Assembly (NCBI GenBank): GCA_965205345.1
Contig: CBDBGQ010000036.1
Span: forward strand, 65,463-129,462
Reading direction: 5' to 3'
Source: Acidobacteriota bacterium
Lineage (GTDB): Bacteria; Acidobacteriota; UBA6911; RPQK01; CBDAPI01
DNA length: 64,000 nt
Position numbers and translations under genes: made by a program. How positions within the stretch are numbered: the stretch's first letter is position 1; every line of letters starts with the position of its first letter. Of this stretch, positions 442 to 62,489 are shown in pieces. The notes beneath the pieces were generated by a model. It did no database searches, was not told the origin of the DNA, and worked only from the letters and a program-made list of their open reading frames with translations.

Positions 442-759
442 TCAGGCTGCCTGGCGGTGGCTCTGGTAAAAGGGATCGTAAAGACTGTCGGCGCGCAACT
501 TGCGTGCATTGGCCACCCACACTTCATGGCCCAGGCTGGATAAAAGTCGAGAGATCCACCCCGAATGAGTCCCCACTTCCAGCGCGATACGGCTGTCCGC
601 CACTGGAGAGAAAAACTTCTGCAAGGCTGCGGCGCGAGTCGCTACTTTCTGTTCCCAAACCAGCTCCCCATCCTCCTGCGAAAGCGCTATCACATGGCAG
701 CTGCGATCCGAAATATCCATCCCGATTGTTACCATTCCATCTCTGTGATACTTTTTCAT
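442..759 (-). pseudogene. IS110-family transposase N-terminal fragment (truncated)
   Basis: 105-aa ORF 'MVTIGMDISDRSCHVIAL...LEVGTHSGWISRLL..HEVWVANARKLR' resembles the N-terminal DEDD domain of IS110 transposases. The C-terminal two thirds are absent. It abuts the IS1182-like element. Confidence 0.5.
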
Positions 760-780: not shown

Positions 781-2243
781 GGCCCCTAGCAGCCCGTGGT
801 GGAAGTACGTTTTCTGAGCTCAGGTGGTACCCACGGGTGGAAGCAGCGAAGGGGTCGCTGAGTTGGGTTTTTCGGGCCAAGCAGCCGGAATCAGTCCGAA
901 CAGGCCCTTAAGACGCTTGAACAGCGACAAAATCAGTAGCATCAGGGCGCAAATCCGCCCCTGCAGACCCCGCGGCGTTCCCACACCCAGGCTCTGACGC
1001 ATCAGCATCCCCAGATTGAAGGCGCTCACCTGGATCAGCAGTCGCTTCAACACATTCTCATGTCCCCGTACATGCAGCCGTCTCATCCCTCCGCTCCCGT
1101 ACAGATGCGCACAGGGTCGCTCCAGCTGCTCTCCTCGTTGCCGCAGCAGCCGCTGCCCTCGCTCTCCCCGGATGCGCCGCCGATTCGCATACACCGCTTC
1201 CTGCCCCTGCCGGTCTCCTCGCCAGCGTCGCTTCCCTCGCCTCGGTTCGCTCACATAGCTGCGCAGTCCCACCGCATCCAGGTCCACCATCCGCTGCGTG
1301 CTGTGATACCCCTTGTCGGCCACCACCTCTTCGATGCCTCGTCCCTCCGGCAGCGCTTGTTCCACCTTCTCGGCCGCTTCCGTCAGGGTCTTCACCATGG
1401 TCTGCGTGTCCCCTTGATCGGCTCCCTGTACCGTCACCGAGACAATCGCTCCGGTCTCCAGATCCACTGCATGCTCCGCCTTGTGCGCCAGGTGCGTCCG
1501 CCCGTCCTTCATTCTGGTAATCCGCGCATCCGCATCATGCGGGTGCTTCCAAACCCGGTTCGATCCTTTGCCCGTGCGCTTGCGGTCCAGTTTGGCCAGA
1601 TCTTCCCGTCGCGGCGTCTCAATCCCGGAGGCTTTCGCCAGCTCCATCAAAAACTCTTCATACCCCTGCTCGCTGTCCCGGCGCACGATGCTGCGCAGCG
1701 CTGCATTCGCTTCCAGCGTAGTGGCATCGATGCCGATCGTCTTGCCCCGCAGCAGGCCGCTCGCCCCGATCCGCTTCAGTACCCAGTCAAAGACTGCTTC
1801 GTGGGTAGCCACATCGATCAGTCGTCGGGTTCGGGAGATCGTGGAGTGATCAGACGGCGACTCGCTCAGTTTCAATCCCAGAAACTCTCGCAGTGCCAGA
1901 GAATCAGCTGCTCTCCAGGCTATTCCTCGTTCCGATCCGATCCCTTCGAAATACCCCACCAGCAGCAGCCGAAAGTACACTCCCGGAGCCAGGCTCGGTC
2001 GCCCCATCTTGTCTGCATAGAACTTCGCACACAGTCCCTCCACGAAGTCGTCAAAGCCGTGTTCGTTGAAAAGGCCATTCAGTCTTTCGTAGAAGGGATG
2101 GCCGGCGGTGCGGGGCAGCTCACTGGTGGCGACCCACAGGTCTTCTTGCTGTCGACGTTTCTTTTTCCCCATTGCCATGGGGTCAGTCTAGTGTCGCTGT
2201 GTGACCCCTTATCCTCGACTTTCACCACGGGCTGCTAGAGGCC
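781..2243 (-). mobile_element. IS1182/IS5-like insertion sequence (about 1.46 kb) with 21-bp terminal inverted repeats
   Basis: Left IR ggcccctagcagcccgtggtg (781-801) is the reverse complement of right IR caccacgggctgctagaggcc (2224-2243) with 1 mismatch. The repeats enclose a single transposase ORF. Confidence 0.75.
820..2178 (-). CDS. DDE transposase, IS1182/IS5 (IS4 superfamily)-like, 452 aa
   Basis: Length and motifs (GIDATTLEANAA..., DKGYHS...) are typical of IS1182-type transposases. It lies between the terminal IRs. Confidence 0.7.
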   Translation of the reverse strand: MAMGKKKRRQQEDLWVATSELPRTAGHPFYERLNGLFNEHGFDDFVEGLCAKFYADKMGRPSLAPGVYFRLLLVGYFEGIGSERGIAWRAADSLALREFLGLKLSESPSDHSTISRTRRLIDVATHEAVFDWVLKRIGASGLLRGKTIGIDATTLEANAALRSIVRRDSEQGYEEFLMELAKASGIETPRREDLAKLDRKRTGKGSNRVWKHPHDADARITRMKDGRTHLAHKAEHAVDLETGAIVSVTVQGADQGDTQTMVKTLTEAAEKVEQALPEGRGIEEVVADKGYHSTQRMVDLDAVGLRSYVSEPRRGKRRWRGDRQGQEAVYANRRRIRGERGQRLLRQRGEQLERPCAHLYGSGGMRRLHVRGHENVLKRLLIQVSAFNLGMLMRQSLGVGTPRGLQGRICALMLLILSLFKRLKGLFGLIPAAWPEKPNSATPSLLPPVGTT

Positions 2244-5917: not shown

Positions 5918-6048
5918 GTTCCACGTTCCACGTTCCACGTTCCACGTCCCGGGGATCCTAAACGATTCCAGGTTCGAAGAAAGCGTGGAACGTGAAACGT
6001 GAAACGTGAAACGTGAAACGCGGAACGTGGAAGGTGGAACGTGGAACG
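5918..6048. repeat. Inverted pair of heptamer arrays, (ACGTTCC)4 then a 35-bp spacer then (GNAACGT)9, between greA and mrcA; a potential long hairpin
   Basis: gttccacgttccacgttccacgttccacg ... gtggaacgtgaaacgtgaaacgtgaaacgtgaaacgcggaacgtggaaggtggaacgtggaacg. Confidence 0.85.
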
Positions 6049-7005: not shown

Positions 7006-7290
7006 AGCCTTTCGGTTCCGAGTTCCGGGTTCCGAGTTCCGGGTTCCGGTTCCGGGGGGGCGTGTTGCCAAAGGGTGCGCTGGCCCGCGCATTGACTGTA
7101 GGGCACGGTTATTAAGCGTGCCGAACTGGACCCGGTGGCACAGTTCATCCATTTCCGGGCCATTGTTGTCATCTCCATTGGTTCGGCACGCCAGGTTGGC
7201 GTGCCCTACGAATCACACCCGGCGGTCGCGGCCCGAGGCCCTCCACTTCAAGAGCGCGGAACCTGGAACTCAGAACCCGGAACTCGGAAC
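7006..7290. repeat. Inverted arrays of variant heptamers, (TTCCGRG)n at 7006-7053 and (GGAACYC)n at 7258-7290, flanking a 200-bp hairpin-rich spacer
   Basis: The spacer contains a perfect 8-bp stem ggcacgcc/ggcgtgcc, and gtagggcacg...cgtgccctac as long-range inverted repeats. Confidence 0.7.
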
Positions 7291-7381
7291 TCGGAACTCC
7301 GGATGTTGAAGTCCGACCTGCTGCGGGATAAGATCTTTCTCAGGTAGTTCGAGGACTCTCACCAAGAGGGATGAAGACAGC

Positions 7382-19874: not shown

Positions 19875-19980
19875 GTTCCACGTTCCATGTTCCAGGTGGG
19901 TTCTAGGTTCTGGGTTCTGGGTTCTGGAAATTTGGGATCCAAGCGTGGAACGTGGAACTTGGAACGTGGAACCTGGAACG
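19875..19980. repeat. Composite inverted heptamer structure: (ACGTTCC)-type arm, (GGGTTCT)4 spacer, (GGAACNT)-type arm
   Basis: gttccacgttccatgttccagg tgggttctaggttctgggttctgggttctgg ... gtggaacgtggaacttggaacgtggaacctggaacg. Confidence 0.85.
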
Positions 19981-20052
19981 CCGCGAGCGACAGCGAGTGG
20001 TTTCCTAGCAGCCCGTAACCCGAAGGGCACCAGGGCTTTGCGCCCAGTGCGA

Positions 20053-22751: not shown

Positions 22752-22832
22752 TCAAGGCAAAACTCAGGCGAACCAGGGAAACGCAGTGAGCAAAGTGAAC
22801 AAAGATTATCGTATTTCATGAAAGGGAGTATT
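22752..22832. repeat. Type D repeat copy 2 (22752-22806) followed by a solo MITE-C-like terminal motif (atcgtatttcatgaaagggagtat)
   Basis: Direct sequence comparison with 21357-21412 and with the 3' end of the element at 34693-34962. Confidence 0.65.
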
Positions 22833-22907
22833 TAATACTTGAAGTTTGAGCTCTCGAGAAATAGAAAAGAGTCTTCGATTCAAACCTGAAAAGGGGGTTT
22901 CAGACAC

Positions 22908-25402: not shown

Positions 25403-25428
25403 CGTTCCACGTTCCACGTTCCACGTTC
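25403..25428. repeat. (ACGTTCC)n heptamer array, about 3.5 units
   Basis: cgttccacgttccacgttccacgtt lies upstream of ispE. Confidence 0.8.
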
Positions 25429-25449
25429 GACGGAAGTCAAGTCAGCACC

Positions 25450-26376
25450 GTGAGCAAAACACGAATCAAGTCGTTTGCCAAGATCAACTGGATCTTTAAG
25501 GTTCTGGGCCGCCGCCCGGATTCCTTCCACGAAGTGAGCACAGTACTGCAAACCGTCGACCTGGCTGATCGGATCTCGATCGAGCTGCTCACTTCGGACG
25601 GGATCGAGCTGAAAACAACGGGTTACGAGGTCGCGCAGGGCGAGGACAATCTTGTCCATCGTGCTGCCTGCCTGCTGAAGCGGGAATTCTCGGTTCAGAC
25701 CGGGGCCAGGATCTTTCTGGAGAAACGGATTCCTGTAGGGGCCGGCCTGGGTGGAGGGTCTTCCAATGCCGCGATTGTCCTGCTGGGATTGAATCGACTC
25801 TGGGACTGTGGGGCGGATCCGGAACGTCTACACAAACTGGGTCAGAAACTCGGCTCTGATGTCCCGTTCTTCCTGCTGGGGGGCACGGCCTGGGGACGGG
25901 GTCGGGGCGAACAACTCAGACCTCTGCCGGATCCCCCAAACGAAGAGCTTGTCCTCTGCTACCCGGGCTTCTCCATGTCGACGGCAGAGGCCTATGCCAT
26001 GGGGCAGTGGGCCCCTCTGAACAAGCCCCCTAAATGGTTGACAAAGACCGGGACGGATACTAAAATCCGACGCTTCTGTGATTATGCGGAGAATGGTCGA
26101 CGGGTTCATGTGCTTATTGAGAACGATTTCGAAGCCCCTCTTCTGAAACGCTTTCCGCAACTCGCAGAAACCCATCGGGCGGTGGAGAAGGCGGGGTGCG
26201 AATGTGTCGCACTTTGTGGAAGTGGTTCGACGCTTCTCGGAGTTCCTGCACGAAGCCCAACAAAACTGGTGGCGGAAAGACTCTCTCACGCCGGGGTAGG
26301 ACAGGTCTTTCAGACCTCGACTCTGGCCCGGCATCAGTACAGGGCAGCTCTTCAGGAGACCGGGATCGGGCTCTAG
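25450..26376 (+). CDS. ispE: 4-diphosphocytidyl-2-C-methyl-D-erythritol kinase
   Basis: 'KINWIFKVLGRRPDSFHEV' and GHMP ATP motif 'PVGAGLGGGSSNAA' are present. Its TAG stop is the TA flank of the downstream MITE. Confidence 0.9.
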   Translation: MSKTRIKSFAKINWIFKVLGRRPDSFHEVSTVLQTVDLADRISIELLTSDGIELKTTGYEVAQGEDNLVHRAACLLKREFSVQTGARIFLEKRIPVGAGLGGGSSNAAIVLLGLNRLWDCGADPERLHKLGQKLGSDVPFFLLGGTAWGRGRGEQLRPLPDPPNEELVLCYPGFSMSTAEAYAMGQWAPLNKPPKWLTKTGTDTKIRRFCDYAENGRRVHVLIENDFEAPLLKRFPQLAETHRAVEKAGCECVALCGSGSTLLGVPARSPTKLVAERLSHAGVGQVFQTSTLARHQYRAALQETGIGL

Positions 26377-26473
26377 TGCAGCCCGCCATAAGTTCTGAGC
26401 CACGTTCAGACGCCCCTCCCCGCCGCTGGCGTTGTTGCGCTGACCCTGGCTCAGAACTTATGGCGAGCTGCAC
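26377..26473. mobile_element. MITE-like palindromic element type A (97 bp; about 28-bp terminal inverted repeats GTGCAGCCCGCCATAAGTTCTGAGCC), TA-flanked
   Basis: A perfect long hairpin is read directly. A second copy lies at 56867-57028 with the internal loop inverted plus a 60-bp insert. Confidence 0.75.
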
Positions 26474-26475
26474 TA

Positions 26476-26633
26476 GTGTGCTGTCTGGGAAGTTCGCGGG
26501 GTTAATTCGGGATGGATTTTCGTCGCCAGTGAGGCGCGCGACGCAGGAATGCCGGGAGTCTTTCGAGGAGCGCAACAAAGCTGTCGGCGAAAAGACGCCC
26601 GAAGTAGCGTCGTGAACTTTCCGGATAGTACAC
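26476..26633. mobile_element. MITE-like element type B (158 bp; 24-bp TIR GTGYRCTGTCYGGRAAGTYCRCG), TA-flanked, abutting type A
   Basis: A second copy lies at 47109-47266, about 90% identical over its full length. Confidence 0.75.
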
Positions 26634-26635
26634 TA

Positions 26636-26665
26636 GCAGTCCGTGTTGAAAGTCGCGCGCTAGGG
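26636..26665. repeat. Solo copy of an IS1182-like terminal-IR motif (TAGCAGYCCGTGKTGAAARTCGCGCGC)
   Basis: Similar to the IS IR at 781-801 and to 35988-36018. Confidence 0.5.
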
Positions 26666-26673
26666 AGTTTCAC

Positions 26674-27603
26674 ATGCTGAAAGTTTTTGCTGGAAGTTCG
26701 AATCCGGAATTAGCGGAGGAGATCTGTCAGTACCTGGGTGTCCCCCCGGGCGAACAGTCTCTGCGACGCTTCAGCGACGGTGAGGTCGCTTACCAGGTTC
26801 TGGAAAACGTGCGAGGAGCAGATGTCTTTGTAGTCCAACCCAGTTGTCCGCCTGTCAATGAAAGCATCATGGAGATGCTGATCATGATCGACGCCTTCAA
26901 GCGTGCGTCGGCTCGACGGATAACGGCTGTCTTGCCCTATTACGGATACGCCCGACAGGACCGGAAAGACAAGCCCCGAGTCCCCATCTCTGCCAAGATT
27001 GTGGGAGATCTGCTGACTGCGGTCGGAGCCAGCCGCCTGTTGACAATGGACCTGCACGCGGGCCAGATTCAGGGCTTCCTGAACATCCCGGTGGATCATC
27101 TTTTTGCGGCTCCGGTGATTCTGGAACATCTGGCAACTCTCGGGCTGAACGACCCGGCCATCGTGTCACCTGATGCCGGTGGCGTTGAGCGGGCGCGCTT
27201 TTACGCAGAGCGCCTGAAGGCCAATCTTGCCATCATTGACAAACGTCGGGTTGTCGCCAATGAGGCCGAAATCATGAACATTATCGGTGATGTGCGGGGC
27301 CAGGAGGTGGTTGTGGTGGACGACATGATTGACACCGCCGGCACCCTGGTCAAGGCGGCACAAGCCCTCAAAGATCAGGGGGCTACACGCGTTTATGCAG
27401 CGGCCAGCCACGGGGTACTGTCGGGACCCGCCATACAAAGACTTCGCGAGTCTCCCGTGGAAGAAGTGATCGTGACCAATTCAATCACAGTGACCGAGGG
27501 AAAACGAATCGACAAGCTGACCATCCTGAGTGTTGCCTCACTGCTGGGTGAGGCGATTCGATCCATTCACGAGGAAACCTCGGTCAGCAAACTGTTCATT
27601 TAA
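26674..27603 (+). CDS. prs: Ribose-phosphate pyrophosphokinase
   Basis: PRPP-binding motif 'VVVDDMIDTAGT' is present; 309 aa. Confidence 0.9.
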   Translation: MLKVFAGSSNPELAEEICQYLGVPPGEQSLRRFSDGEVAYQVLENVRGADVFVVQPSCPPVNESIMEMLIMIDAFKRASARRITAVLPYYGYARQDRKDKPRVPISAKIVGDLLTAVGASRLLTMDLHAGQIQGFLNIPVDHLFAAPVILEHLATLGLNDPAIVSPDAGGVERARFYAERLKANLAIIDKRRVVANEAEIMNIIGDVRGQEVVVVDDMIDTAGTLVKAAQALKDQGATRVYAAASHGVLSGPAIQRLRESPVEEVIVTNSITVTEGKRIDKLTILSVASLLGEAIRSIHEETSVSKLFI

Positions 27604-27632
27604 GAGTACTCAGGATTCTGGAGAACCAGACC

Positions 27633-28274
27633 ATGCCTGATTTTGTTTTGACTGCACTGCTCAGAGAAGAGCGTGGGAAAAATGCCAACCGTCGACTCCG
27701 TGCCACCGGACAGATCCCAGCGATTGTCTACGGAAGGGCCATCGATCCAATCTCTGTGGCCATCGATCCCAGAGAAGTCTTCTCGATATTGCATTCCGAG
27801 TCCGGCCGTAACACCGTGTTCAAGTTGAAAATCAATGAGAAACAGATGGATGTGCTGATCCGCGAACTGCAGGTAGACCCGATTCGAGGCCATCTGCTGC
27901 ACGCGGACTTCCAGACAATCTCAATGGACGAGAAACGAGCTTTCAGCGTGCCCATTGATCCTGTCGGTGAAGCCGAGGGAGTCAAGGGCGGAGGCATCCT
28001 CGATATCGTCGTCCGGGAGATTGAAGTGGAGTGTCTTCCCACGGACGTACCGGACCACATCCCTGTCGACATTTCTGATCTCGAGGTAGGTCAGGCCATC
28101 CGAGTGAGGGATCTGGAAATCACGGCAGAAGGGTTTGAGGTCTTGTCCGACCAGGATCTGGTGCTCTTGACAGTGGTACCGCCCAAGGTCGAGGTCGAGC
28201 CGGAACCCGAGGAAGAGCTGGCTGAAGAGGAGGCTCCGGAACCCGCCGCAGAGACACCCGAGGAGAAAGAGTAG
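27633..28274 (+). CDS. rplY: 50S ribosomal protein L25 / general stress protein Ctc
   Basis: L25 beta-barrel followed by a CTC domain and acidic tail; canonical prs-rplY-pth arrangement. Confidence 0.85.
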   Translation: MPDFVLTALLREERGKNANRRLRATGQIPAIVYGRAIDPISVAIDPREVFSILHSESGRNTVFKLKINEKQMDVLIRELQVDPIRGHLLHADFQTISMDEKRAFSVPIDPVGEAEGVKGGGILDIVVREIEVECLPTDVPDHIPVDISDLEVGQAIRVRDLEITAEGFEVLSDQDLVLLTVVPPKVEVEPEPEEELAEEEAPEPAAETPEEKE

Positions 28275-28285
28275 GGCGACTTCGA

Positions 28286-28891
28286 TTGTATTTGATCGCC
28301 GGATTGGGGAATCCAGAAAGACGGTTCGAAAACACGCGCCACAACATAGGATTCATGGCGGCAGACCGGCTGGTGGCCGCAGCCGGGGCAGGCTTCGTAG
28401 CGCAGCATCAGTCCCTGGTTTCGATGATCCGCCGGTGTAAGCACCAGGTGGTGGTGGCCAAGCCCCAGACTTACATGAACCGCAGCGGGGCTGCCGTTCG
28501 GAGATTGATGGAGTGGAAACAACTGGAACTGCAGGATCTGCTGGTCGTGTACGACGATGTTGACCTCCCCTTTGGACGACTTCGGCTCAGAACTGGAGGA
28601 GGGTCTGGTGGTCACAACGGAATGAACTCGATTATTGCTGAGCTTGCTTCTCAGGAATTCGCACGAGTGAGAATAGGAATCGGAAGGGCAACGAGAGAAT
28701 CGGACCTCAGCTCGTTTGTCCTGGACGTGTTCGACAAAGAAGAGATGGAATTGCTTGATCCTGTGCTCGACTTCACGCTGCAGGCTGTGGACTCGATCCT
28801 TATTAACGGAATAGAAAAGAGCATGGCCCGCTTCAACCAGCGGCGTCCCCCCAATGCTCCCCCAGGTTCGAAGGAATGTGTTGATGAGTGA
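28286..28891 (+). CDS. pth: Peptidyl-tRNA hydrolase
   Basis: '[21 protein letters not shown]' and 'GGHNG' are present. Confidence 0.9.
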
Positions 28892-30881
28892 CTACTACTG
28901 GACTCTCCCCGTTCTCGGAGTTGTCGGTCTGTTGTTTGCAGGGTTGATTTATGCCTCGATCAAAAGGGTGAAGGTCTCGAACCAGAAGATGATGGAGATC
29001 TCCGATGCCATCCACGATGGCGCGATGGTCTTCTTGCGAAGGGAATATGGAATTCTTCTGGTGTTTATCGTCCTCGCCTTCGGGCTCCTGAGCTGGGCAG
29101 TTTCTGTGTGGACGGCAGTGGCCTTCGGGCTGGGCGCGGCGAGTTCCATGATGGCTGGCTTTTTCGGGCTGAAAGCGGCCACTCGAGCGAATGTAAGGAC
29201 GACCCAGGCCGCCCACGACTCGGGTATAGCCGAGGCCTTGAATATTGCTTTCTCCGGAGGAGCCGTGATGGGCCTCTCAGTCGCCAGCCTGGGTCTGATG
29301 GGCGTCTCGATCGCCTTCATGCTTGGCCTCCACGGATCCATCGAGTTCAGCGATATCAGCGGATTTGCCATGGGGGCCAGTTCGATCGCCCTCTTTGCCC
29401 GCGTCGGGGGCGGGATCTACACGAAGACGGCAGATGTCGGAGCCGATCTGGTCGGAAAGGTCGAGGCGGGAATTCCCGAGGACGATCCAAGGAACCCGGC
29501 CACCATCGCAGACAACGTGGGCGACTGTGTGGGGGACACAGCCGGCATGGGAGCTGACATTTTTGAAAGCTATGTGGGCTCCGTGATCGCAACGATCGCC
29601 CTGGCCGCCACCGGAACTTCGGAGGTTCTGCAGATCACGGAGACGAACCGGCTTCTCTACATGGCACTGCCCCTCTACATCATCGCCATTGGCCTCGCAG
29701 CCTCCCTGATCGGCGTGGCTTCCATGCGCTTGTTGAGAGGAATGGGACCTGCCCAAGCGCTTCGCTACTCTCCCGTTGTGAGTGCCGTTCTCCTGCTCGT
29801 CGGAACTTATCTAAGCGTGGACGGCATGGGGCTGGAACTCGGAATCTTCTTGGCTGTCCTCACGGGCACGGTCAGCGGAATCGTCATTGGTCTGTTGACG
29901 GAATGGTACACATCGGCCAGTCCCATCCAACGTATTGCTGAGGCCTCAAAGACCGGTCCGGCGACCAACATCATTGCCGGGCTCGCGGTGGGGATGCAGT
30001 CTACCGTGCTGCCCATCCTGACCATCTGCGCCAGCATCCTGATCGCCTACAATTATGCCGGGCTGTACGGGATTGGAATCGCAGCCGTCGGGATGCTGGC
30101 AACGGTAGGGGTTACGATGTCGGTTGATGCCTATGGCCCGATTGCCGACAATGCTGGAGGCATCTCTGAAATGGCGGGTCTGGGCTCGGACACCCGCTCC
30201 ATCACAGACAGCCTGGACTCAATTGGAAACACCACCGCCGCCATCGGGAAAGGATTTGCAATCGGGTCGGCGGCCCTCACTGCACTGGCACTTTTCTCGG
30301 CTTACAGCAAAGCAGTTCATCTGGAAGTTCTGAACCTGCTCAACCCTACCGTGGTTGTGGGCTTTTTCATCGGCGGAGCTTTGCCCTTCCTGGTTGCCGA
30401 CTTGACCATGTCGGCTGTAGGACGGGCAGCCTTTCAAATGGTGGAAGAGGTTCGACGGCAGTTTCGGGAGATCCAGGGGCTGATGGAGGGAACCGCAAAA
30501 CCGGACACGGCCCGCTGCATTGACATCTCGACCAGGGCCGCCCTCAGAGAAATGGTCCTTCCCGGACTGGTTGCCATTTCGGCTCCGCTTCTAATGGGTT
30601 TACTGCTGGGCGCTGAGGCCCTGGGAGGTATGCTTGCCGGAGCCACCCTCACGGGCGTGCTGATGGCCCTTTTCATGGCCAATGCAGGTGGAGCCTGGGA
30701 CAATGCCAAGAAGCTCATCGAGGGAGGGATTCTGGGCGGCAAAGGCTCCGATCCACACAAAGCTGCAGTCGTCGGTGACACGGTCGGAGATCCCTTCAAG
30801 GACACAAGCGGGCCCTCCATGAACATCTTGATCAAGTTGATGTCCATCGTCTCGCTCGTCATCGCACCGCTTCTGAGGTAG
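28884..30881 (+). CDS. hppA: Membrane-bound proton-translocating pyrophosphatase (V-type H+-PPase)
   Basis: '[19 protein letters not shown]', '[21 protein letters not shown]' and a C-terminal '[13 protein letters not shown]' are present. The start (MSDYYW) overlaps the pth stop by 8 nt. Confidence 0.9.
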
Positions 30882-31002
30882 AGTACTCACTTGGGCCAGG
30901 CTCATTGGCAAGGCAGAACGGCCCAACCATGTGCTAAGATGAGCGTTTTTTTGGAGTTGAGTACTCACTTTCATGAATACCGTACTTATGGAAGAGAGTA
31001 CT
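30882..31002. mobile_element. MITE-C-like palindromic element (AGTACTCAC termini) between the hppA stop and the rpsF RBS
   Basis: AGTACTCACTTGGGCC...AGTACTCACTTTCATGAATACCGTACTTATGGAAGAGAGTACT shares termini with the element at 34693-34962. Confidence 0.6.
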
Positions 31003-31018
31003 TAGGAGGAATTTGTCC

Positions 31019-31471
31019 ATGAGGCGATACGAAATCGTTTTCGTTCTCGCTCCCGACCTGCCTGACACCGATCTGGAAGATACGATCGACGGTTACAAAG
31101 TCGCGGCAGAAGAGATGGGAGCCAAAGTCCTCGACGTTGACAAATGGGTGAGAAAGCGGCTTGCATTTCCCGTCAAGAAGTACACCGAGGGTACCTACGT
31201 CTTTCTGCTCGTCGAGGAGGAACAAGCCAAGGCTGTGGCGGAACTGGAACGCCGGTTCAAGGTGGCCGAGTCTGTTATCCGTTTCTTGACGATCAGGACG
31301 GACGGCACAGACAAACGTATCCAGAAGAAAATTGCTTACCGGGAAAAGCGCAGGCAGCAACTCGCTCAGCAAAAGGATGCGGCCAACCAGGCGGGCCAGA
31401 CAGGCCCCGACACAGCCGCGCAGACGACTCCCGAAGCAACCACCGTGGCGACTGCCGGGAAAGAAGAGTAA
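31019..31471 (+). CDS. rpsF: 30S ribosomal protein S6 (with extended C-terminal tail)
   Basis: 'MRRYEIVFVL...' with RBS GGAGG 8 nt upstream. Confidence 0.85.
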   Translation: MRRYEIVFVLAPDLPDTDLEDTIDGYKVAAEEMGAKVLDVDKWVRKRLAFPVKKYTEGTYVFLLVEEEQAKAVAELERRFKVAESVIRFLTIRTDGTDKRIQKKIAYREKRRQQLAQQKDAANQAGQTGPDTAAQTTPEATTVATAGKEE

Positions 31472-31491
31472 GAAGCCTGGAGGAGGCTGCC

Positions 31492-32157
31492 ATGCAATTG
31501 GTGCTAGTCGATGATGTACTCCATCTGGGAAGACGAGGTGACGTTGTCACCGTTGCATCCGGCTATGGACGGAACTATTTGATACCGAAGGGCCTTGCCG
31601 TTGCGGCTACCTCCGCTAACCTGAAAATGGTGCAGCAACAGCGGGCAGTTCTGGCAAGAAAGGAATCGAGAGTCAAAGAAGATGCCGAGATTCTCGCTCA
31701 GGAATTGAATCAGCTTCATCTTGTCCTCAGCCGCAAGGCGGGTGAAACAGGGGCTCTATTCGGCTCCGTAACCGCCAAAGATCTGGCTGATCTGTTTGCA
31801 GAGAATGGCTTCAGCCTGGACCGCCGAAAGATCGATTTGGAGCACCCGCTGAAGTCGATCGGAAACTTCCCGGTCGTGGTTCATCCCCACCCTGAAGTCA
31901 AGCTGGAGTTTCTCGTCTCCGTGGTTCTCGAAGAGCAAGAGCCCGTCGCCAGAATTCTCAAACAGGGAACTGATGAGAGCGCCGGAATTGTTAGCGGTGT
32001 GGAAAGCCTCCTCAGAGAAGCTGCGGAAGAACTGGAGGCTCAAAAGGAGGCCCTGCCAGCCGAGATACTGGAGACGGTAGAACCTGCTGCCGAGGTTCCG
32101 GAGGACGTAGTCGAAGAAGAAGTCGTTGAAGCTGCAGAAGAAGACAAGAGCGACTGA
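31492..32157 (+). CDS. rplI: 50S ribosomal protein L9 with an acidic C-terminal extension
   Basis: 'MQLVLVDDVLHLGRRGDVVTVASGYGRNYLIPKGLA' is present. The upstream 116 codons of the ORF overlap rpsF and are not counted. Confidence 0.85.
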   Translation: MQLVLVDDVLHLGRRGDVVTVASGYGRNYLIPKGLAVAATSANLKMVQQQRAVLARKESRVKEDAEILAQELNQLHLVLSRKAGETGALFGSVTAKDLADLFAENGFSLDRRKIDLEHPLKSIGNFPVVVHPHPEVKLEFLVSVVLEEQEPVARILKQGTDESAGIVSGVESLLREAAEELEAQKEALPAEILETVEPAAEVPEDVVEEEVVEAAEEDKSD

Positions 32158-32165
32158 CAACGAAA

Positions 32166-32189
32166 ACGTTCCACGTTCCACGTTCCACG
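32166..32189. repeat. (ACGTTCC)n heptamer array, about 3.5 units
   Basis: cgttccacgttccacgttccacg lies between rplI and dnaB. Confidence 0.8.
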
Positions 32190-32288
32190 CATCTTGATTC
32201 CGAGTTGGCGGACTGGTTACCATGGAACCATCAGTCTTGCGGCTTCCTCGTTTACCTACTCAGACTGGTCTTATAAAGTGCGGTCGGA

Positions 32289-33656
32289 ATGGCAGCTCCG
32301 GACATAACTCTCGAGAAGGTTCTTCCTCACAGCGCCGAAGCGGAACGGGCTGTTCTGGGAGCCATCCTGCTGGACAACCAGCTCTTCGATCAGGCCGCAG
32401 CCATCCTCCATATCGAAGACTTCCATGTCCGCGCCCACCAGACAGTTTTTGCCGGCATGGCAACGTTATCAACCGCCCTAAAGGCGATCGACGCCGTGAC
32501 CCTGCGTTCCGAGCTGGAAAAAGGGAGCCACCTTCAGGAGATCGGTGGAGCATCGTATATCTCTTCTCTTCTCGACGGCGTCCCCAGACTGGCCAACATT
32601 GAACACTACGCCCGGATCGTCAAGGAGAAGGCGGTCCAGCGGAAGCTAATTCATGCCGCCTACAAGATCCTGGAGCAGAGCTACACCGACCACCTCGATA
32701 CCGCCGAGCTACTGGAAGAGGCAGAGCGGTCCATTTTTGAAATCAGCCAGCAACGAATCGAAAGTGGCTTCGTGAAGCTCGGGCACATTCTTCCTGATGC
32801 CTACAAACAGATCCAATCCTTTTACGAGCAGAAATCGCTGATCACGGGAATCGGGACCGGCTATACCGACCTGGATGCTTTAACTTCGGGATTTCAGAAA
32901 ACGGATCTGATCATCATCGCGGCGCGCCCTGGACTCGGGAAGACCAGCCTGGCATTGAATATCGGGCAATACGCTGCGCTTGGCCACAATTCGGTCGGTA
33001 TTTTCAGCCTGGAGATGAGCTCTTTCCAGCTCGTCACCCGTTTGCTCTGCTCCCACGCCCGAATTGACAGTCACAAGCTGCGCTCAGGACGTCTTTCCAA
33101 GGGGGACTGGACGGAGCTGGCTGCGACGATGGGCCATCTCGATCAGGCCAAGATCTTCATCGATGATGCGGCCGCTATTTCCATCCTGGAAATGAGGTCC
33201 AGGGCGCGCCGGCTAAAGGCGGAGCACGGTCTCGACCTCCTGATCGTGGACTATCTCCAACTGATGTCTCCTTCCGCGGGAGGAAGGAGATCGGATAACA
33301 GGGAACGTGAGATCTCGGCGATCACTCGGTCCTTGAAGGCCCTGGCCAAAGAGCTCAACATCCCGGTCGTGGCCCTCTCCCAGCTGAGCCGCGCACCCGA
33401 ACAGAGAAAGGGCCGCCAGATTGGCAGGCCTCAACTCTCCGACCTGCGTGAATCGGGAGCGATCGAGCAGGATGCGGATGTCGTCCTTTTCATTTATCGA
33501 GAAGACCTGTACAAGAAGCCGGAGGACCTGGAAAACGAGCAGGGAGTAGCTGAGATCATCATTGCAAAGCAGCGAAACGGACCTACCGGAGTGATCAAGC
33601 TCGCCTTTATTGACAAGTGGACGCGATTTGAGAATCTGGCCTTCGATCGAGAATGA
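32289..33656 (+). CDS. dnaB: Replicative DNA helicase DnaB
   Basis: N-terminal 'AERAVLGAILLDN', Walker A 'ARPGLGKTSLALN' and RecA-like C-terminal domain are present; 455 aa with no intein. Confidence 0.9.
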   Translation: MAAPDITLEKVLPHSAEAERAVLGAILLDNQLFDQAAAILHIEDFHVRAHQTVFAGMATLSTALKAIDAVTLRSELEKGSHLQEIGGASYISSLLDGVPRLANIEHYARIVKEKAVQRKLIHAAYKILEQSYTDHLDTAELLEEAERSIFEISQQRIESGFVKLGHILPDAYKQIQSFYEQKSLITGIGTGYTDLDALTSGFQKTDLIIIAARPGLGKTSLALNIGQYAALGHNSVGIFSLEMSSFQLVTRLLCSHARIDSHKLRSGRLSKGDWTELAATMGHLDQAKIFIDDAAAISILEMRSRARRLKAEHGLDLLIVDYLQLMSPSAGGRRSDNREREISAITRSLKALAKELNIPVVALSQLSRAPEQRKGRQIGRPQLSDLRESGAIEQDADVVLFIYREDLYKKPEDLENEQGVAEIIIAKQRNGPTGVIKLAFIDKWTRFENLAFDRE

Positions 33657-34708
33657 AGTCCCGGTCGTGGGTGGAAATCTCCGTTTCCAGCCTCAAACAC
33701 AATCTGAAAGCGATTCGGTCGCGCCTCCGCAAGGGCACGGCCATCATGCCCGTCGTCAAAGCGAATGCCTATGGCCACGGCCTTCTCCAGGTTGCCGGGA
33801 TACTGCGCCAGGAAGGGATCTCCAGATTCGCTGTTGCTCAGCCTGCTGAAGGTCTTGAGTTGCGGCAGGCCCTTGCCGAGAGCGAGATTCTGGTCTTCGG
33901 TGGTTGCCAGGAGAACGAGGGCCGGGACTTCATTGAACATCGCCTTACCGCAACCATCCACGACACTCGAACCGTACACCCCGACCTGGCAGTTGAAGTC
34001 AAAATCGATACCGGAATGACCCGAATCGGGATCCCCTGGGAGGAAGCGGCTGCTTTTCTCAGATCCACTCCTGCCCGGCTACAGGGTGTTTACTCCCACT
34101 TTGCGCGGGCCGACGCCGACGCCGACTTTTCCCGGCTGCAGATGGAGCGCTTCCTGAGAGCGACCCGTAACATCCCACAACGGCGACACATCGCGAACAG
34201 TGCGGGATTGAGGTTTCCCGAAGCACACCTCAACCTGGTCAGGGTCGGGCTGGCTCTGTATGGTGTGGCTCCTTGCCCCGGATTTGAAGATCTGCGACCC
34301 GCACTCACGTGGAAGAGTCGACTCATGGCCGTTCGTCGAGTCAAGGCAGGCCAGTGGGTTGGCTATGGGACATCTTTTCAGAGCCTCCGGGAATCGGTGA
34401 TTGGAGTATTGCCTGTCGGTTACGCCGATGGCTACCGGCGAGTTCTCTCGAATCAGGCAGATGTCCTTGCCCGCGGGCATCCGGCCAGGGTGGTCGGTAG
34501 TGTCAGCATGGACCTGACCTGCATAGACCTGACGGACATCGAGGGGATGCAGCCTGGAACTGAAGTCGAGCTCCTCAGCGCCGATCCAGACTCTCCCTTT
34601 CCTGCCGGGCCCTGGCAAGACTCGCTGACACCATTCCCTACGAGATTCTCACCGGGATCGGACCACGGGTGGAACGCCGCTACGTCGACTAAGTACTCAC
34701 TTCCATAA
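33653..34708 (+). CDS. alr: Alanine racemase, with an apparent 1-nt frameshift about 34615 that replaces the last 25 residues
   Basis: PLP-Lys 'MPVVKANAYGHG' is present. The conserved C-terminus '...ALARLADTIPYEILTGIGPRVERRYVD*' is readable in the -1 frame from a GGG(G) run onward. Confidence 0.8.
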   Translation: MKSRSWVEISVSSLKHNLKAIRSRLRKGTAIMPVVKANAYGHGLLQVAGILRQEGISRFAVAQPAEGLELRQALAESEILVFGGCQENEGRDFIEHRLTATIHDTRTVHPDLAVEVKIDTGMTRIGIPWEEAAAFLRSTPARLQGVYSHFARADADADFSRLQMERFLRATRNIPQRRHIANSAGLRFPEAHLNLVRVGLALYGVAPCPGFEDLRPALTWKSRLMAVRRVKAGQWVGYGTSFQSLRESVIGVLPVGYADGYRRVLSNQADVLARGHPARVVGSVSMDLTCIDLTDIEGMQPGTEVELLSADPDSPFPAGPWQDSLTPFPTRFSPGSDHGWNAATSTKYSLP

Positions 34709-34962
34709 ATACGATGATGTTTGTTGGGAGCGCGACGGAGACCAGATTGAGGCGAGACGACGAGTCGATGCGGGAGCATCGGCGAGGAGGAACAACAAAG
34801 AGATGGGCCCGTCCCGCCCCAACCCTTCGGGCGGATGGGGGTTGCGGGCGATCTCTTTGTCGTTCGTCGTCAACGATGCTACCGCATCGCCTCCTCCTCT
34901 CTTCGCAACCTCACCTCGCAAGCCCCATCCGCAAACATCATCGTATTTATGGAAGGGAGTAC
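34693..34962. mobile_element. MITE-like element type C (270 bp; about 30-bp TIR GTACTCACTTCCATAAATACGATGATGTTTG), TAA-flanked
   Basis: The terminal inverted repeats are read directly, and there is an internal GC-rich hairpin. It starts on the corrected alr stop codon. Confidence 0.7.
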
Positions 34963-34965
34963 TAA

Positions 34966-35080
34966 GGTTGAAAGTTCATGACACCACGACAACGGAACAG
35001 CAAGGCGTGAGCCTGCCGTTTCCCCAAAGCTGAGCTGACAACGGTGAGCTGGCGCTCTACCGTTCTGTGGGTTTCCTTGA
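34966..35080. repeat. Dispersed two-module repeat (type E) containing the hairpin AACGGCAAGGCGTGAGCCTGCCGTT
   Basis: Matches 47276-47372 with the two roughly 45-bp modules in swapped order. Confidence 0.6.
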
Positions 35081-35139
35081 CACCGAAACGTCTCACAGCC
35101 CTGTGCCGTTTCGTAGGTTTTCGACGACGGGCCCTCTGT

Positions 35140-35883
35140 TCATCCTCCAGCCCCAAGGACTGAGAGCAGATAGCGGATCTCTTCGTCGACTTGCCCGGAA
35201 TCCGCCACGGTCTGACCCACTTCCTCCCGGAGTAACACCCCGAAACGCTGGCGCAGGCGATGGACGGCCACTTTGACCGCTCCTTCCGTCATCCCCAGCC
35301 GATCTGCCACAGAGCGGTAGCGGATGCCCGTGGTCTCCCCGGTCAGGAACGGCTGGAGGCTATTGAACCGCTGGCTCTGGCCTGCCTGATCCATGGCCGC
35401 CGCCAGTCTTTCCAGAGTCTGGTCGATCAGAGTGAGAGCCCAGCGCTGCTCGTAAACCTTGTCGGGAGAGATGTCGTCTGCCGGTTCCACATGGTAACGA
35501 TCCTCTCCTTTTTCAAAATCAAGAGAGATTGGAATTCTCCCTCCGCCCCGTTTCTTGGTCCTGGCACGGTCCCACTCGTTCGCCAGGTAGTTCTTCAAGG
35601 AAGTTAAGAGGAAAGAGCGAAACTTCCCCCGCTGCGGATCGGCAGCCTTAATGTATCCCTTACCCAGAAACTGGGCAAAGAACCCCTGAGTGAGATCCTG
35701 GGCCTCTTCGGAACCGTAGCCACGGCGCCGAACATAGACATACAGGGGGTACCAGTAGCGCTCGCAAAGATCCTCGAGAGCCTCCCGCCCATGTGGGCTC
35801 CTCGTGTCCGCCGCCTCCAGAACAAGTGTCCACCTGGTTGTTGTGAACCAGTCTTGACGGGGGGTTGGCTTCCGATCGTCCAT
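35140..35883 (-). CDS. ECF-type RNA polymerase sigma factor (sigma-70 regions 2 and 4), of the kind associated with Ser/Thr kinases
   Basis: 'DWFTTTRWTLV' N-terminal motif is present, with region 2 'YWYPLYVYVRRRG' and region 4 'VADRLGMTEGAVKVAVHRLRQR'. Confidence 0.7.
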   Translation of the reverse strand: MDDRKPTPRQDWFTTTRWTLVLEAADTRSPHGREALEDLCERYWYPLYVYVRRRGYGSEEAQDLTQGFFAQFLGKGYIKAADPQRGKFRSFLLTSLKNYLANEWDRARTKKRGGGRIPISLDFEKGEDRYHVEPADDISPDKVYEQRWALTLIDQTLERLAAAMDQAGQSQRFNSLQPFLTGETTGIRYRSVADRLGMTEGAVKVAVHRLRQRFGVLLREEVGQTVADSGQVDEEIRYLLSVLGAGG

Positions 35884-45892: not shown

Positions 45893-47108
45893 TATTTTTG
45901 GAACGGTTCCCCTGCCCCAGGGCCGCGAAGTTGTGCTTCCCTGCTTTCTCCTGATTGTTGTTGCCACGATGCTGGAGATGCCAATCTTCACCGCCATTGG
46001 CGGAATCGCACTCCTGGGCCTCTGGAGCGACGGCACTCCCATCAACTCGGTGCCCGGGGAAACCTACCGGTTGACGGTCAACGCCATGCTGCCGGCGATC
46101 CCCCTGTTTGCCCTGGGGGGTTACATACTGGCCGAAGGAGGAGCCAGCCGCCGCCTGATGCGACTGTTTACCGCCTGGGTCGGGTGGATGCCGGGCGGGT
46201 TGGCTGTCGTCACCGCTCTGGTGCTGGCCTTCTTCACTCCCCTGACCGGCGCCTCGGGTATCACCATTGTTGCCATGGGCGGCATGTTTCTCCCGGTTCT
46301 CTTGAAAGCAGGCTATCCACGGCAAACGTCCCTTGGATTGGTGACGGTCTCGGGATCCATCGGCCTGCTCTTTTTTCCCAGCCTTCCGGTATTCCTTTAT
46401 GCCTTCTACGCAAAGCAGCACTACAAAGAGCTGTTTGTGGGTGGGTTTCTACCCGGTCTCCTCCTGGTCACCTGTGTGGCTGGCTGGGCCGCAGCCAGGG
46501 GATGGCAGCGGGGAGCGGAACGGACCCCCTTTCGACCCCACGAAGCGGGGGCAGCTGCCTGGGAAGCCAAATGGGATCTGGTGCTTCCAGTACAGGAACC
46601 TGAGTCCTCGGAAGCATTTACCCAAGGTCTTTGTGGAATGCTCCACCTTGATCGGGGGCTTCATGATCATCCTCTGCGTAGCCCTGGGATTTGTCTATTA
46701 TCTGACGCTGGTCGAGATCCCGACAATGGCTCTCGAGTGGGTGCAGGCGCATATCGAGTCTCCCCTCGTCTTTTTGCTGGCCCTGAACCTGCTGCTGATC
46801 ATTGTCGGGGCCCTGATGGATATTTACTCCGCCATCGTCGTCGTGGTTCCGCTCATCATTCCCATGGCGGCAGCCTATGGCATCGATCCTGTCCATCTGG
46901 GAATCATCTTTTTAGCCAATATGGAGCTCGGTTACCTGATGCCGCCCATGGGCGAGAACCTGTTCCTTTCCTCCTATCGCTTTGACAAACCACTCACACA
47001 GGTCTACCGGTCCACCCTGCCCTATATTCTCATCCTGCTGGGAGTCGTCCTTCTGATTACATACGTCCCGATTTTTACTCTGGGCCCGATCGAGCTCTTG
47101 CTCCGCTA

Positions 47109-47266
47109 GTGTACTGTCCGGGAAGTCCACGGTGTTAATTCGGGATGGATTTTCGTCGTCAGTGAGGCGCACGACGCAGGAATGCCTGGAGTATTTCGAG
47201 GTAGCGCAACAAAGCTGTCGGCGAAAAGACGCCCGAAGTAGCGGCGTGAACTTTCCGGACAGTGCA
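47109..47266. mobile_element. MITE-like element type B, copy 2, TA-flanked, starting on the dctM stop codon
   Basis: About 90% identical to 26476-26633. Confidence 0.75.
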
Positions 47267-47275
47267 CTAGGGTTG

Positions 47276-47372
47276 GACTCCAGATTTCAGATTAACGGTG
47301 AGCTGACGCTCTTCCGTTCTGTGCCGTTTCCTTGACACCACAACAACAGAACGGCAAGGCGTGAGCCTGCCG
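47276..47372. repeat. Type E two-module repeat, copy 2
   Basis: See 34966-35080. Confidence 0.6.
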
Positions 47373-47431
47373 TTATTCCTCGAACTTCTCACATTCCAGG
47401 ACCCAGAAGTCAGAGCCCCAAACATGTTAAG

Positions 47432-47935: not shown

Positions 47936-48172
47936 TTCCACGTTCCACGTTTCACGTTCCACGTCGTGCGCTCATTGTCATTCGCGCCTTTTGCCTGCCC
48001 GGCGGCTGGACAGATCATCTCCGGAACACCGGCCCGCAAGGCCGTGAGGAACTGTCACCATCAAGGAAACGACAGAGGCAGGAACGAAAGTGACTGCGCA
48101 GCAGCGCGGAAGCTGCCGGGAAAACGCCTCACGCTGCGCAACCGTGGAACGCGAAACGTGAAACGTGGAATG
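47936..48172. repeat. Inverted pair of heptamer arrays, (ACGTTYC)4 at 47936-47964 and (GNAACGT)4 at 48143-48172, flanking a 180-bp spacer
   Basis: Read directly. Confidence 0.8.
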
Positions 48173-49061: not shown

Positions 49062-49177
49062 TTGAAACAAACAAGGGGATTGAGGCGTCCTTTATGCACA
49101 ACAGGTACGGCACCCAAGCAAGTATGGAACCGGTCCCAAACTTGACTCAACATTAAAGATGAACTCGGCTCAAGTAA

Positions 49178-49207
49178 CCTAGAACCCAGAACCCAGAACC
49201 TAGAACC
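49178..49207. repeat. (AGAACCY)n heptamer variant array, the complement of GGGTTCT
   Basis: aacctagaacccagaacccagaacctagaacc lies upstream of bshC. Confidence 0.75.
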
Positions 49208-49209
49208 TT

Positions 49210-55539: not shown

Positions 55540-55570
55540 CAACGTCATCGTATTTATGCAAGTGAGTACT
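55540..55570. repeat. Solo MITE-C terminal motif (CATCGTATTTATGCAAGTGAGTACT)
   Basis: Matches the 3' end of the element at 34693-34962. Confidence 0.55.
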
Positions 55571-55588: not shown

Positions 55589-56866
55589 ATGGCATCTTTT
55601 CTATTTCCTCAAATAGCGACCGTCACGCAGCGATTCGACCCGCAACGAGTCGAGAATATCGAGTCGACCCTGCTCGCGGAGTTTCAACAGAAGAGGGAGC
55701 TCCTGGAAGGAACCTGCGGGCGGAGAATTGCCGTCTGCGTGGGGAGTCGGGGCATCGCCCAGCTCTCCGACGTCGTTCGGGTACTCGTTGATGAGCTCAG
55801 GAAGGCCGGCGCCGACCCCTTCATCGTGCCGGCCATGGGGAGCCACGGCGGGGGGACGGCCGAGGGTCAGACACAGATTCTGGCCGGGTACGGCGTTACC
55901 GAGTCGAACGTCGGAGCTCCCCTGATTGCCTCTATGGACGTGGTGGAGATCAGCCCCACCGTCGACGGCGTTCCGGTGCATGTGGACCGGGCCGCCTTCG
56001 AATCGGATGGAATCATTCTCGTCAACAGAGTCAAGCCGCATACGGATTTCAAGGGAAAGGCCGAAAGCGGCTTGATGAAGCTGGCCGCCGTCGGCCTGGG
56101 CAACATCCACGGCGCAACCCATTTTCACCGTTTTACTCGCTCGCTGGGTTACGAACGACTGATCATCACCAAAGCCCGGAATATCATCGCCAGCGGCAAG
56201 GTGCTCATGGGGCTGACCATTATTGAGAATGCCTACCACCAACCGGCTCACCTCGAGCTGATTCCGTCCGCGGAGATTGTCGAGAGAGAGCAGCAACTGC
56301 TGCTTCGTGCCAAAGATCTGATGCCCACTCTGCCGGCTTCCCAGATCGACTTGCTCATCATTGACCGCATTGGCAAGAACATCAGTGGAACAGGTCTGGA
56401 CCCGAACGTGACGGGCCGCTGGTCCGGCTTCAACTCGCTGTGGCAGGACACTCCCGATGTCCATCGGATTGCTGTCCTGGATCTCAGCACAGAAACCCAC
56501 GGGAATGCAGTAGGGATTGGACTGGCTGACTTCTGCACCCAGCGTCTGGTGGACAAGATCGACAAGGACGTGACCTACCTCAACTGCCTCACCGCCCACC
56601 TTACCGTTCCTGGACGAATCCCCATCCACTTCTCGACGGATCAAGAGACGATTCGCCGGGCTTTGCTTTCGGTAGGCGGCCTAAGCCGGTCTGAAGACCA
56701 GCGTGTGATTCGAATCCGCGACACTCTCAGTCTAAACACCCTGGAGGCCTCAGAGTCGATGCTGGAAGAACTTCGAGACCACCCCAACATGGTCCAGATT
56801 GGTGATCTTCGCCCCCTCACCTTCGATGGCGACGGAGGACTGGGGGAGATGGGTTCTGGGTTCTAG
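55589..56866 (+). CDS. LarA-like (DUF2088) nickel-pincer-cofactor racemase/epimerase family protein, putative; last 4 codons encoded by a heptamer repeat
   Basis: Size and motifs (AMGSHGG, KPHTDFKG, NIHGATHF) suggest the LarA N-terminal domain family. The start is taken at MASFLFP. Confidence 0.4.
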   Translation: MASFLFPQIATVTQRFDPQRVENIESTLLAEFQQKRELLEGTCGRRIAVCVGSRGIAQLSDVVRVLVDELRKAGADPFIVPAMGSHGGGTAEGQTQILAGYGVTESNVGAPLIASMDVVEISPTVDGVPVHVDRAAFESDGIILVNRVKPHTDFKGKAESGLMKLAAVGLGNIHGATHFHRFTRSLGYERLIITKARNIIASGKVLMGLTIIENAYHQPAHLELIPSAEIVEREQQLLLRAKDLMPTLPASQIDLLIIDRIGKNISGTGLDPNVTGRWSGFNSLWQDTPDVHRIAVLDLSTETHGNAVGIGLADFCTQRLVDKIDKDVTYLNCLTAHLTVPGRIPIHFSTDQETIRRALLSVGGLSRSEDQRVIRIRDTLSLNTLEASESMLEELRDHPNMVQIGDLRPLTFDGDGGLGEMGSGF

Positions 56867-57028
56867 TGCAGTTCGCCATAAGTTCTGAGCCAGGGTCAGC
56901 GCGTCAATCGTCGTCGCTGGTTAGGCGTCGCGAGCGAGTCATATCATGCCATATGGCGAGCGAGCGCAACAACGCCAGCGGCGGGGAGGGGCGTCTGAAC
57001 GTGGCTCAGAACTTATGGCGAACTGCAC
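56867..57028. mobile_element. MITE-like element type A, copy 2 (loop inverted plus 60-bp insert), TA-flanked, inserted inside a (GGGTTCT)n array
   Basis: Flanks gggttctgggttcTA | element | TAggttctgggttctgg. Confidence 0.75.
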
Positions 57029-57076
57029 TAGGTTCTGGGTTCTGGGGTGGCGCGCTCACATTCCATCAGGAACCCT

Positions 57077-62391: not shown

Positions 62392-62489
62392 GCGTTCCAC
62401 GTTCCACGTTGTCTCGGTGTAGGAAAACTCTCGGACGAGGCACGACGTGGAACTTGGAACGTGGAAACGTGGAACGTGAATCTGGAATG
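62392..62489. repeat. Inverted pair of heptamer arrays in the maf/PqqD intergenic region
   Basis: gcgttccacgttccacgtt ... cgtggaacttggaacgtggaaacgtggaacgtgaatctggaatg. Confidence 0.8.

Follow-up and report, generated by a model that had tools for sequence, protein, structure and literature searches.

Why do palindromic repeats in a genome of an uncultured Acidobacteriota end exactly on the stop codons of the genes that they follow? The question is raised by a stretch of 64,000 nt from an Acidobacteriota bacterium of the UBA6911 lineage (GenBank assembly GCA_965205345.1, contig CBDBGQ010000036.1, positions 65,463 to 129,462 of the forward strand; the whole stretch is called the window below). 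[quoted passage not shown] We conclude, with a probability of roughly 0.8, that types A and B are MITEs derived by deletion from IS630/Tc1-mariner insertion sequences (ISs) and insert at CTAG, and that type C is a related MITE inserting at CTWAG (W, A or T). Direct support comes from the repeats themselves, their flanks, a parent IS for type A, empty sites and an enrichment at stop codons.

All three families were found where they had been placed, and far beyond chance, with 3–4 repeats observed against 0–0.2 expected from shuffling controls. The type A core, GCCATAAGTTCTGAGCC, occurs 4 times in the window (0.14 expected), the type B arms also 4 times (0 expected) and the type C terminus 3 times (0 expected). 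The elements of the window are:

26373-26476: type A MITE with an internal deletion of about 65 nt, both CTAG flanks included; the left CTAG holds the ispE stop codon
26473-26636: type B MITE; shares CTAG 26473-26476 with the type A copy
26633-26663: 23-nt fragment CAGTCCGTGTTGAAAGTCGCGCG between two more CTAGs; the prs ribosome-binding site (RBS) and start codon then follow
30882-30965: 84-nt piece whose termini, AGTACTCACTT ... GAGTACT, resemble those of type C; begins right after the hppA stop codon TAG
30960-31002: type C mini-element, 43 nt, two inverted ends only; on the right, the flank CTTAG leads into the rpsF RBS
34689-34966: type C MITE, about 272 nt, foldback with a CTAAG direct repeat at each end; the left CTAAG holds the alr stop codon
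47106-47270: type B MITE, second copy; the left CTAG holds the dctM stop codon
56863-57031: type A MITE, full length, orientation opposite to the 26373 copy; the left CTAG holds the stop codon of a LarA-like gene
55541-55570, minus strand: solo type C end, degenerate, upstream of the LarA-like gene
22798-22834, minus strand: weak degenerate type C-like end

Types A and B at 26373-26636 form adjacent foldbacks, each starting with CTAGTG and ending with CACTAG. They do stand back to back, as had been noted, but share the whole CTAG and not TA alone. Their arms are longer than the 28 and 24 bp first read for A and B. Those of type A span 37 nt (26373-26409/26440-26476 and 56863-56899/56995-57031) with 92–95% complementarity (92% in the 26373 copy), and type B, whose two copies are 92% identical, folds back over its entire length. 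The 97-bp copy that had served as the model of type A is an internally deleted version of an element of about 162 bp. Type C at alr has arms of 121 nt that are 75% complementary. The interval 30882-31002, previously read as a single type C copy, is a composite of the 84-nt piece and the mini-element, although its 3' end does meet the rpsF RBS (AGGAGG, 31004-31009; ATG at 31019). The two solo type C ends are present, yet degenerate.

Direct reading of the sequence bore out that the 5' flank is the stop codon of ispE (TAG 26374-26376), the LarA-like gene (TAG 56864-56866), dctM (TAG 47107-47109) and hppA (TAG 30879-30881). Curated models identified ispE, hppA, dctM (its C-terminal half), alr and the NPN-dependent (LarA-like) isomerase and reached the C-terminal ends; the ends of alr and ispE were also confirmed by orthologues. 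The stop of dctM is as described, while dctM itself is split into two overlapping open reading frames (ORFs), 45933-46985 and 46399-47109. To bring the alr stop, TAA 34690-34692, into frame, a C run (CCC, 34594-34596) must be corrected by 1 nt. In two close strains the run is CCCC, and their alr is intact, measures 346 aa and ends exactly at the TAA that matches 34690-34692; the comparison points to a one-C frameshift in this homopolymer that is probably either an assembly error or a strain pseudogene. Since the LarA-like ORF runs 29 residues past its family model, the CTAG stop of this gene may be a derived one.

We then compared these elements with loci from other genomes and metagenomes (L numbers below). 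Exact matches to the type A core lay overwhelmingly in Acidobacteriota metagenome-assembled genomes (MAGs), UBA6911 included, and about 40 type A copies of 98–169 bp, without an ORF and with unrelated flanks, were found in at least 6 Acidobacteriota MAGs. In OZ252114.1, a chromosome-level MAG of a related Acidobacteriota, type A end pairs lie 1492 bp apart and enclose a 356-aa ORF:

L008 5802-7294: type A parent IS, 1492 bp, CTAG-flanked, ends TGCAGCTCGCCGTAAGTCTTGAGCC / GGCTCAGAACTTATGGCGAGATGCA

The 356-aa protein scored 229.9 bits against NF033545 (NCBIfam IS630; cut-off 100) and contains Pfam DDE_3 and helix-turn-helix (HTH) domains, and members of its cluster are named 'IS630 family transposase' by NCBI. 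Seven copies of the parent IS, with protein identities of 99.7–100%, all have the same inverted ends and CTAG flanks, and the ends of type A match those of the IS over about 25 nt. Transposase homologues of 81% and 70% identity from other metagenomes (L094-L096) are likewise CTAG-flanked, with ends TGCAGC...AAGTTCTG. Because the same inverted ends enclose an IS630-family transposase in a related genome, type A is, on this sequence evidence, a MITE of an IS630-family IS, the origin that the earlier note had proposed.

A second ORF of about 103 aa (MSFEME...LYVRVWGKNLIVGREE...RHTGRWEKTP) is also conserved in the parent IS and all of its 70–81% identical relatives; Pfam and NCBIfam gave no match for it:

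L008 5836-6144, minus strand: second ORF of the parent IS
L094 1683-1994: second ORF
L096 1741-2052: second ORF

The flanks define the target more narrowly than had been supposed. Types A and B were said to be bounded by TA or TAA; TA is indeed present, but the flank is a full CTAG throughout, save for one type A copy with TTAG. Type A has CTAG on both sides in nearly all of its copies, with unrelated sequence beyond. Scanning de novo for inverted ends bounded by CTAG...CTAG yielded 69 elements of many families, among them a second IS630-family IS (L056 4901-6136, 214.7 bits) and, within the window, an IS1182/IS5-like IS at 786-2238. IS630 is reported to prefer TA within 5'-CTAG-3' and to duplicate TA (Tenzen & Ohtsubo 1991, as cited in PMC2170065). 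The suggestion that a target preference lies behind the stop-codon association therefore stands, with the target sharpened to CTAG, the preference described for IS630. CTAG is depleted in this DNA, with 43 occurrences in the window against 238 expected and 641 in the loci against 1924 expected.

We propose the following mechanism. A transposase encoded elsewhere would move A and B in trans, recognising their inverted ends and integrating them at the palindrome CTAG. The central TA would be duplicated, by family precedent, and the G...C ends of the element would rebuild CTAG at both junctions. Because these ends restore CTAG, a TAG stop would be kept intact: at a target of C+TAG at a gene end, the stop and the protein would be unchanged and the insertion harmless, unlike one inside a gene or promoter. 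Each insertion would turn one CTAG into two targets, which would explain the back-to-back and nested copies sharing one CTAG (8 of 54 insertion clusters are tandem or nested in this way). With CTAG rare in these genomes, a large part of the targets open to insertion would be stop codons. Type C would act likewise at CTWAG, where C+TAA+G, or the complement CTTAG, supplies TAA or TAG.

The stop-codon link extends beyond the window. Among non-redundant type A ends, the frame of the TAG was open for at least 100 codons in 34 of 105, against 5 and 6 for the control frames. Counted as insertion clusters, 31 of 54 lay on a stop by this open-frame rule and 24 of 54 by crude gene calls (44–57%). Free CTAGs in the same loci fell on stops in 38 cases, in intergenic DNA in 163 and within genes in 263, so that stops make up about 19% of the non-genic sites. 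The open-frame rule had also been tried on free CTAGs; it was inflated by genic sites and was replaced by these gene-call classes. The enrichment at stops is significant (Fisher odds ratio 3.4, p=2.6e-4; 2.5–4.4 over ORF thresholds of 60–150 aa), with null-model gene calls taken from a crude longest-ORF heuristic and loci chosen for carrying type A. The exact register is thus fixed by the choice of target, which also makes the baseline at stops high, and the remaining excess would most simply reflect purifying selection against insertions in promoters and 5' untranslated regions (UTRs).

Empty sites indicate that the insertions are recent. In relatives whose ispE is 85, 83, 81 and 76% identical to that of the window (L089-L093), ispE overlaps or abuts prs without any element (a 7-nt overlap, ATGTTGA, or an 18-nt gap), whereas the window lineage has 297 nt of MITE hairpins between the two genes; A and B are for this reason taken as recent insertions. 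The ispE of the window ends 5–10 codons earlier than in these relatives, at CTAG. Excising the interval from the first to the last CTAG, the fourth of which lies at 26660-26663 before the prs RBS, leaves ...GGGCT-CTAG-GGAGTTTCACATG, which aligns with the ispE-prs junction of the relatives. Two near-identical metagenome contigs (L001/L002) carry a full-length type A at the same ispE site, where the window copy is without 65 internal nt. L030 carries a 280-nt MITE with CTAG flanks that the syntenic L013 lacks. Identity reaches 98.9% among copies of one genome but is about 89% for syntenic flanks between genomes, which indicates recent bursts. L013 and L030, two species-level MAGs, also share a type A at the same site between the same genes (L013 2742-2913, L030 4466-4636; element 94% and flanks 89% identical). 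Long retention was considered for this site and rejected, since each copy is nearest to the paralogues of its own genome; the pattern suggests independent hits, recent bursts or gene conversion.

Within the 23 nt between the last two CTAGs of the ispE-prs interval (26637-26659) lies GTGTTGAAAGT, a sequence similar to the start region of prs (ATGCTGAAAGT), which is 31 nt downstream. This fragment may be the remnant of a third insertion in the same target, or a small duplication.

Besides the CTAG flanks, type B has GTG.A (positions 1-5) and AAGTTC (positions 14-19) in common with type A, and both types contain an internal GCGCAACAA.GC...GGCG segment. A transposase encoded elsewhere probably moved type B in trans.

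Type C departs from this pattern in its flanks. A metagenome scan gave 12 loci, in which all complete copies, at about 9 sites, read CTAAG...CTAAG, or CTTAG...CTTAG in the other orientation, with the central base directly repeated. The TA or TAA bounds and TA duplication once assigned to type C therefore give way to CTWAG flanks, and the neatest reading of these flanks would be a 3-bp TWA duplication with symmetric GTACTC...GAGTAC ends. Duplication of a TWA target is typical of PIF/Harbinger elements and of some IS5 subgroups. Type C occurs in sizes of 272, 163, 54 and 43 nt, of which the 54- and 43-nt forms are ends only; the 54-nt copies, in L081-L083, are comparable to the 43-nt mini-element of the window. 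It lies on a TAA stop at about 3 of 8 sites. The alr orthologue in L099 has the same YVD* end, with 50 nt to the next gene and no type C element, and none lies downstream of alr in L100. In the type C ends, CATAAATAC occupies the register that CAT(T)AATAC has in the IS630-family IS of L056, which hints at, and does not prove, an IS630-like parent. Type C is presumably a related MITE mobilised in trans.

C-like MITEs in other MAGs share a core of about 200 nt with type C at 72–77% identity, yet are CTAG-flanked and have four other end sequences. Those matching the window element at 34689-34966 are:

L056 4628-4904: core-sharing MITE
L018 6121-6397: core-sharing MITE
L034 3897-4172: core-sharing MITE
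L020 3022-3301: core-sharing MITE
L030 3730-4009: core-sharing MITE

The core is conserved across five different inverted-end pairs, and the ends covary. A conserved peptide in the core was considered and discarded, as the Shine-Dalgarno sequence and ATG of the window copy are not kept in the relatives. A literature search on CTAAG targets and on IS427 gave nothing usable.

Several observations weigh against the IS630-type reading of the three families, or limit it. CTAG flanks fit a TA duplication with G/C ends and a 4-bp CTAG duplication alike, and the shared type A site, with TTAG at both ends in L013 and CTAG at both ends in L030, favours the 4-bp form; that TA is what is duplicated is our inference from the family. 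The flanks of type C exclude a symmetric TA duplication. Within the 100 loci, neither a parent IS for type B nor a parent of any family for type C was found. In the window itself tblastn found no IS630-family transposase, as had been noted before, which bears on current mobility here. The 2.5–4.4-fold excess at stops is not accounted for by target choice alone, and its size was estimated with the crude gene calls and selected loci mentioned above.

That excess could instead mean that the elements are kept at gene ends by positive selection, not by neutral tolerance, for useful hairpins in the mRNA, which might protect 3' ends, offer RNase III sites or uncouple neighbours such as ispE and prs. 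The A+B transcript would fold into two long hairpins (-174.5 kcal/mol, z = -8.9), these hairpins fill 297 nt between genes that overlap in relatives, and the C-like MITEs keep their core despite their differing ends, all of which would suit such a role. We nevertheless regard it as unlikely. The earlier suggestion that the elements act as terminators found no support: there are 0 intrinsic terminator-like sites (GC-rich stem plus U tract) in 26200-26800. The promoter/terminator scan gave no promoter, and a scan of 26000-35200 against Rfam 15 gave no family, only MIR1858 at 33–39 bits (gathering threshold 137) on the type C hairpin. The orientation of type A relative to the abutted gene shows no bias (13:8, p=0.38). 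The near-identical copies within genomes, and the resemblance of the L013 and L030 copies to their own paralogues, argue for recent bursts over long retention; relatives do without elements at both ispE-prs and alr; and selection against promoter and 5' UTR insertions would produce the excess equally well. A wider reading would join these strands: a guild of IS630-like elements diversified around CTAG, from which the type C branch moved to CTWAG with a 3-nt stagger, while the stop excess reflects selection for 3'-end hairpins. The roughly 200-nt core, carrying at least five unrelated end pairs, would then be functional, or the MITEs would have been rebuilt modularly for different transposases. 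This combination appears to us improbable, to much the same degree as the useful hairpins.

A different parentage for A and B is considerably less probable still. They might be IS5/IS1182-type MITEs that duplicate the whole 4-bp CTAG, as does MITEPsy1, an IS5-derived MITE (PMC3189936); the TTAG on both sides of the L013 copy would fit, and the window contains an IS1182/IS5-like IS with the same kind of flank:

786-2238: IS1182/IS5-like IS, 1453 bp, CTAG-flanked, ends CAGCCCGTGGTGGAAGTA; its 452-aa transposase (820-2178, minus strand) scored 173.5 bits against NF033551, below the cut-off of 270

The ends of this IS are unrelated to type A, while those of type A agree over some 25 nt with an IS that encodes an IS630-family transposase. 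That the coincidence with stop codons is due to spurious ORFs or chance seems hardly credible: long spurious ORFs are common in GC-rich DNA, and the open-frame rule makes many genic free CTAGs look stop-like, but the control frames remained at 5–6 of 105 against 34, the five window genes were recognised by curated models extending to the C-terminal ends, and orthologues confirmed the ends of alr and ispE. We therefore retain the IS630-type origin with CTAG targeting as the preferred reading.

Among known systems, IS630 of Shigella sonnei and the IS630/Tc1-mariner group resemble the type A parent in its DDE transposase with N-terminal HTH domains and in inserting at CTAG, which IS630 prefers as its target and where it duplicates TA (cited in PMC2170065). 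They differ in the host, here an uncultured Acidobacteriota, and in the second ORF of about 103 aa; the CTAG flanks seen here fit duplication of TA or CTAG equally. The closest precedent is RUP of pneumococcus, a MITE of IS630-Spn1 that is non-coding, measures about 100 bp and has ends matching an IS630-family IS. RUP inserts at TA, has many intergenic copies and prefers IS elements as targets, and the available part of its description contains no association with stop codons (PMC2229807). The Acidobacteriota elements differ in that A and B are strictly tied to CTAG and several families coexist. Overlap of gene 3' ends by a few bp and stable RNA hairpins are features of QMITE1/QMITE2 of Coxiella burnetii and the Correia elements of Neisseria (PMC5896051; PMC2229807). 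The QMITE overlaps range from 1 to 50 bp, and the cause of their 3'-end preference was stated to be unknown (PMC5896051); the present elements, in contrast, keep an exact register, for which the CTAG/CTWAG target accounts. The insertion sites of MITEPsy1 are CTAG or YTAA (PMC3189936).

The CTWAG flanks of type C, with their repeated central base, fit the 3-bp TWA duplication of the IS5 and PIF-Harbinger type; type C differs in that no IS5-type parent was found and that its core is shared with CTAG-flanked MITEs. Repetitive extragenic palindromes (REPs) and the bacterial interspersed mosaic elements (BIMEs) associated with REP-associated tyrosine transposases (RAYTs) are palindromes of 20–40 nt with a GTAG/CGTC head and an IS200/IS605-like RAYT gene (PMC3733652). 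An identity with REP/BIME was rejected, as the elements measure 98–272 nt, have long inverted ends and target duplications, and lack a GTAG/CGTC head. The families described here are new IS630-type IS and MITE families in Acidobacteriota, of a kind of element already known. The more novel points may be the variant at CTWAG and the sharing of one core between elements with swapped ends, and we put them forward as hypotheses.

These results offer a simple mechanical account of how some bacterial MITEs come to lie exactly on stop codons: CTAG and CTWAG contain a stop, and the element ends would restore it. Such insertions would be neutral for the protein and generate fresh targets. The results also document IS630-type IS and MITE families as active in uncultured Acidobacteriota, and the ispE-prs pair, overlapping in relatives, indicates that the elements can split operons. 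For annotators, the elements mark true gene ends and are not to be taken for regulatory RNAs.

Other repeats were also noted in the window. A remnant of an IS110-family transposase gene (442-759, minus strand) adjoins the IS1182/IS5-like IS, which may have disrupted it. A second copy of that IS, suspected at 20005, was dismissed, as CTAGCAGCCCGT there is an 8-nt chance match. Several CTAG sites come from the (AACCTAG)n array at 49176-49208, and the type A copy at 56863-57031 is inserted among heptamer repeats, (GGGTTCT)n. Short GTTCCAC heptamer arrays (with GTTCCGA and GGGTTCT as variants) occupy at least 15 sites in the window, often as intergenic inverted pairs 40–230 nt apart, for example:

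5918-6048: heptamer array
7015-7299: heptamer array
19875-19980: heptamer array
25403-25432: heptamer array
47936-48170: heptamer array
62445-62478: heptamer array

A fourth small repeat has only two copies in the window, at 34979-35084 beside type C at alr and at 47294-47374 beside type B at dctM. Its parts are a pair of hairpin units (AACGGTGAGCTG.CGCTCT.CCGTT and AACGGCAAGGCGTGAGCCTGCCGTT) and GTTTCCTTGACACC, in an order that differs between the two sites, and its first hairpin unit is also present in L097/L098.

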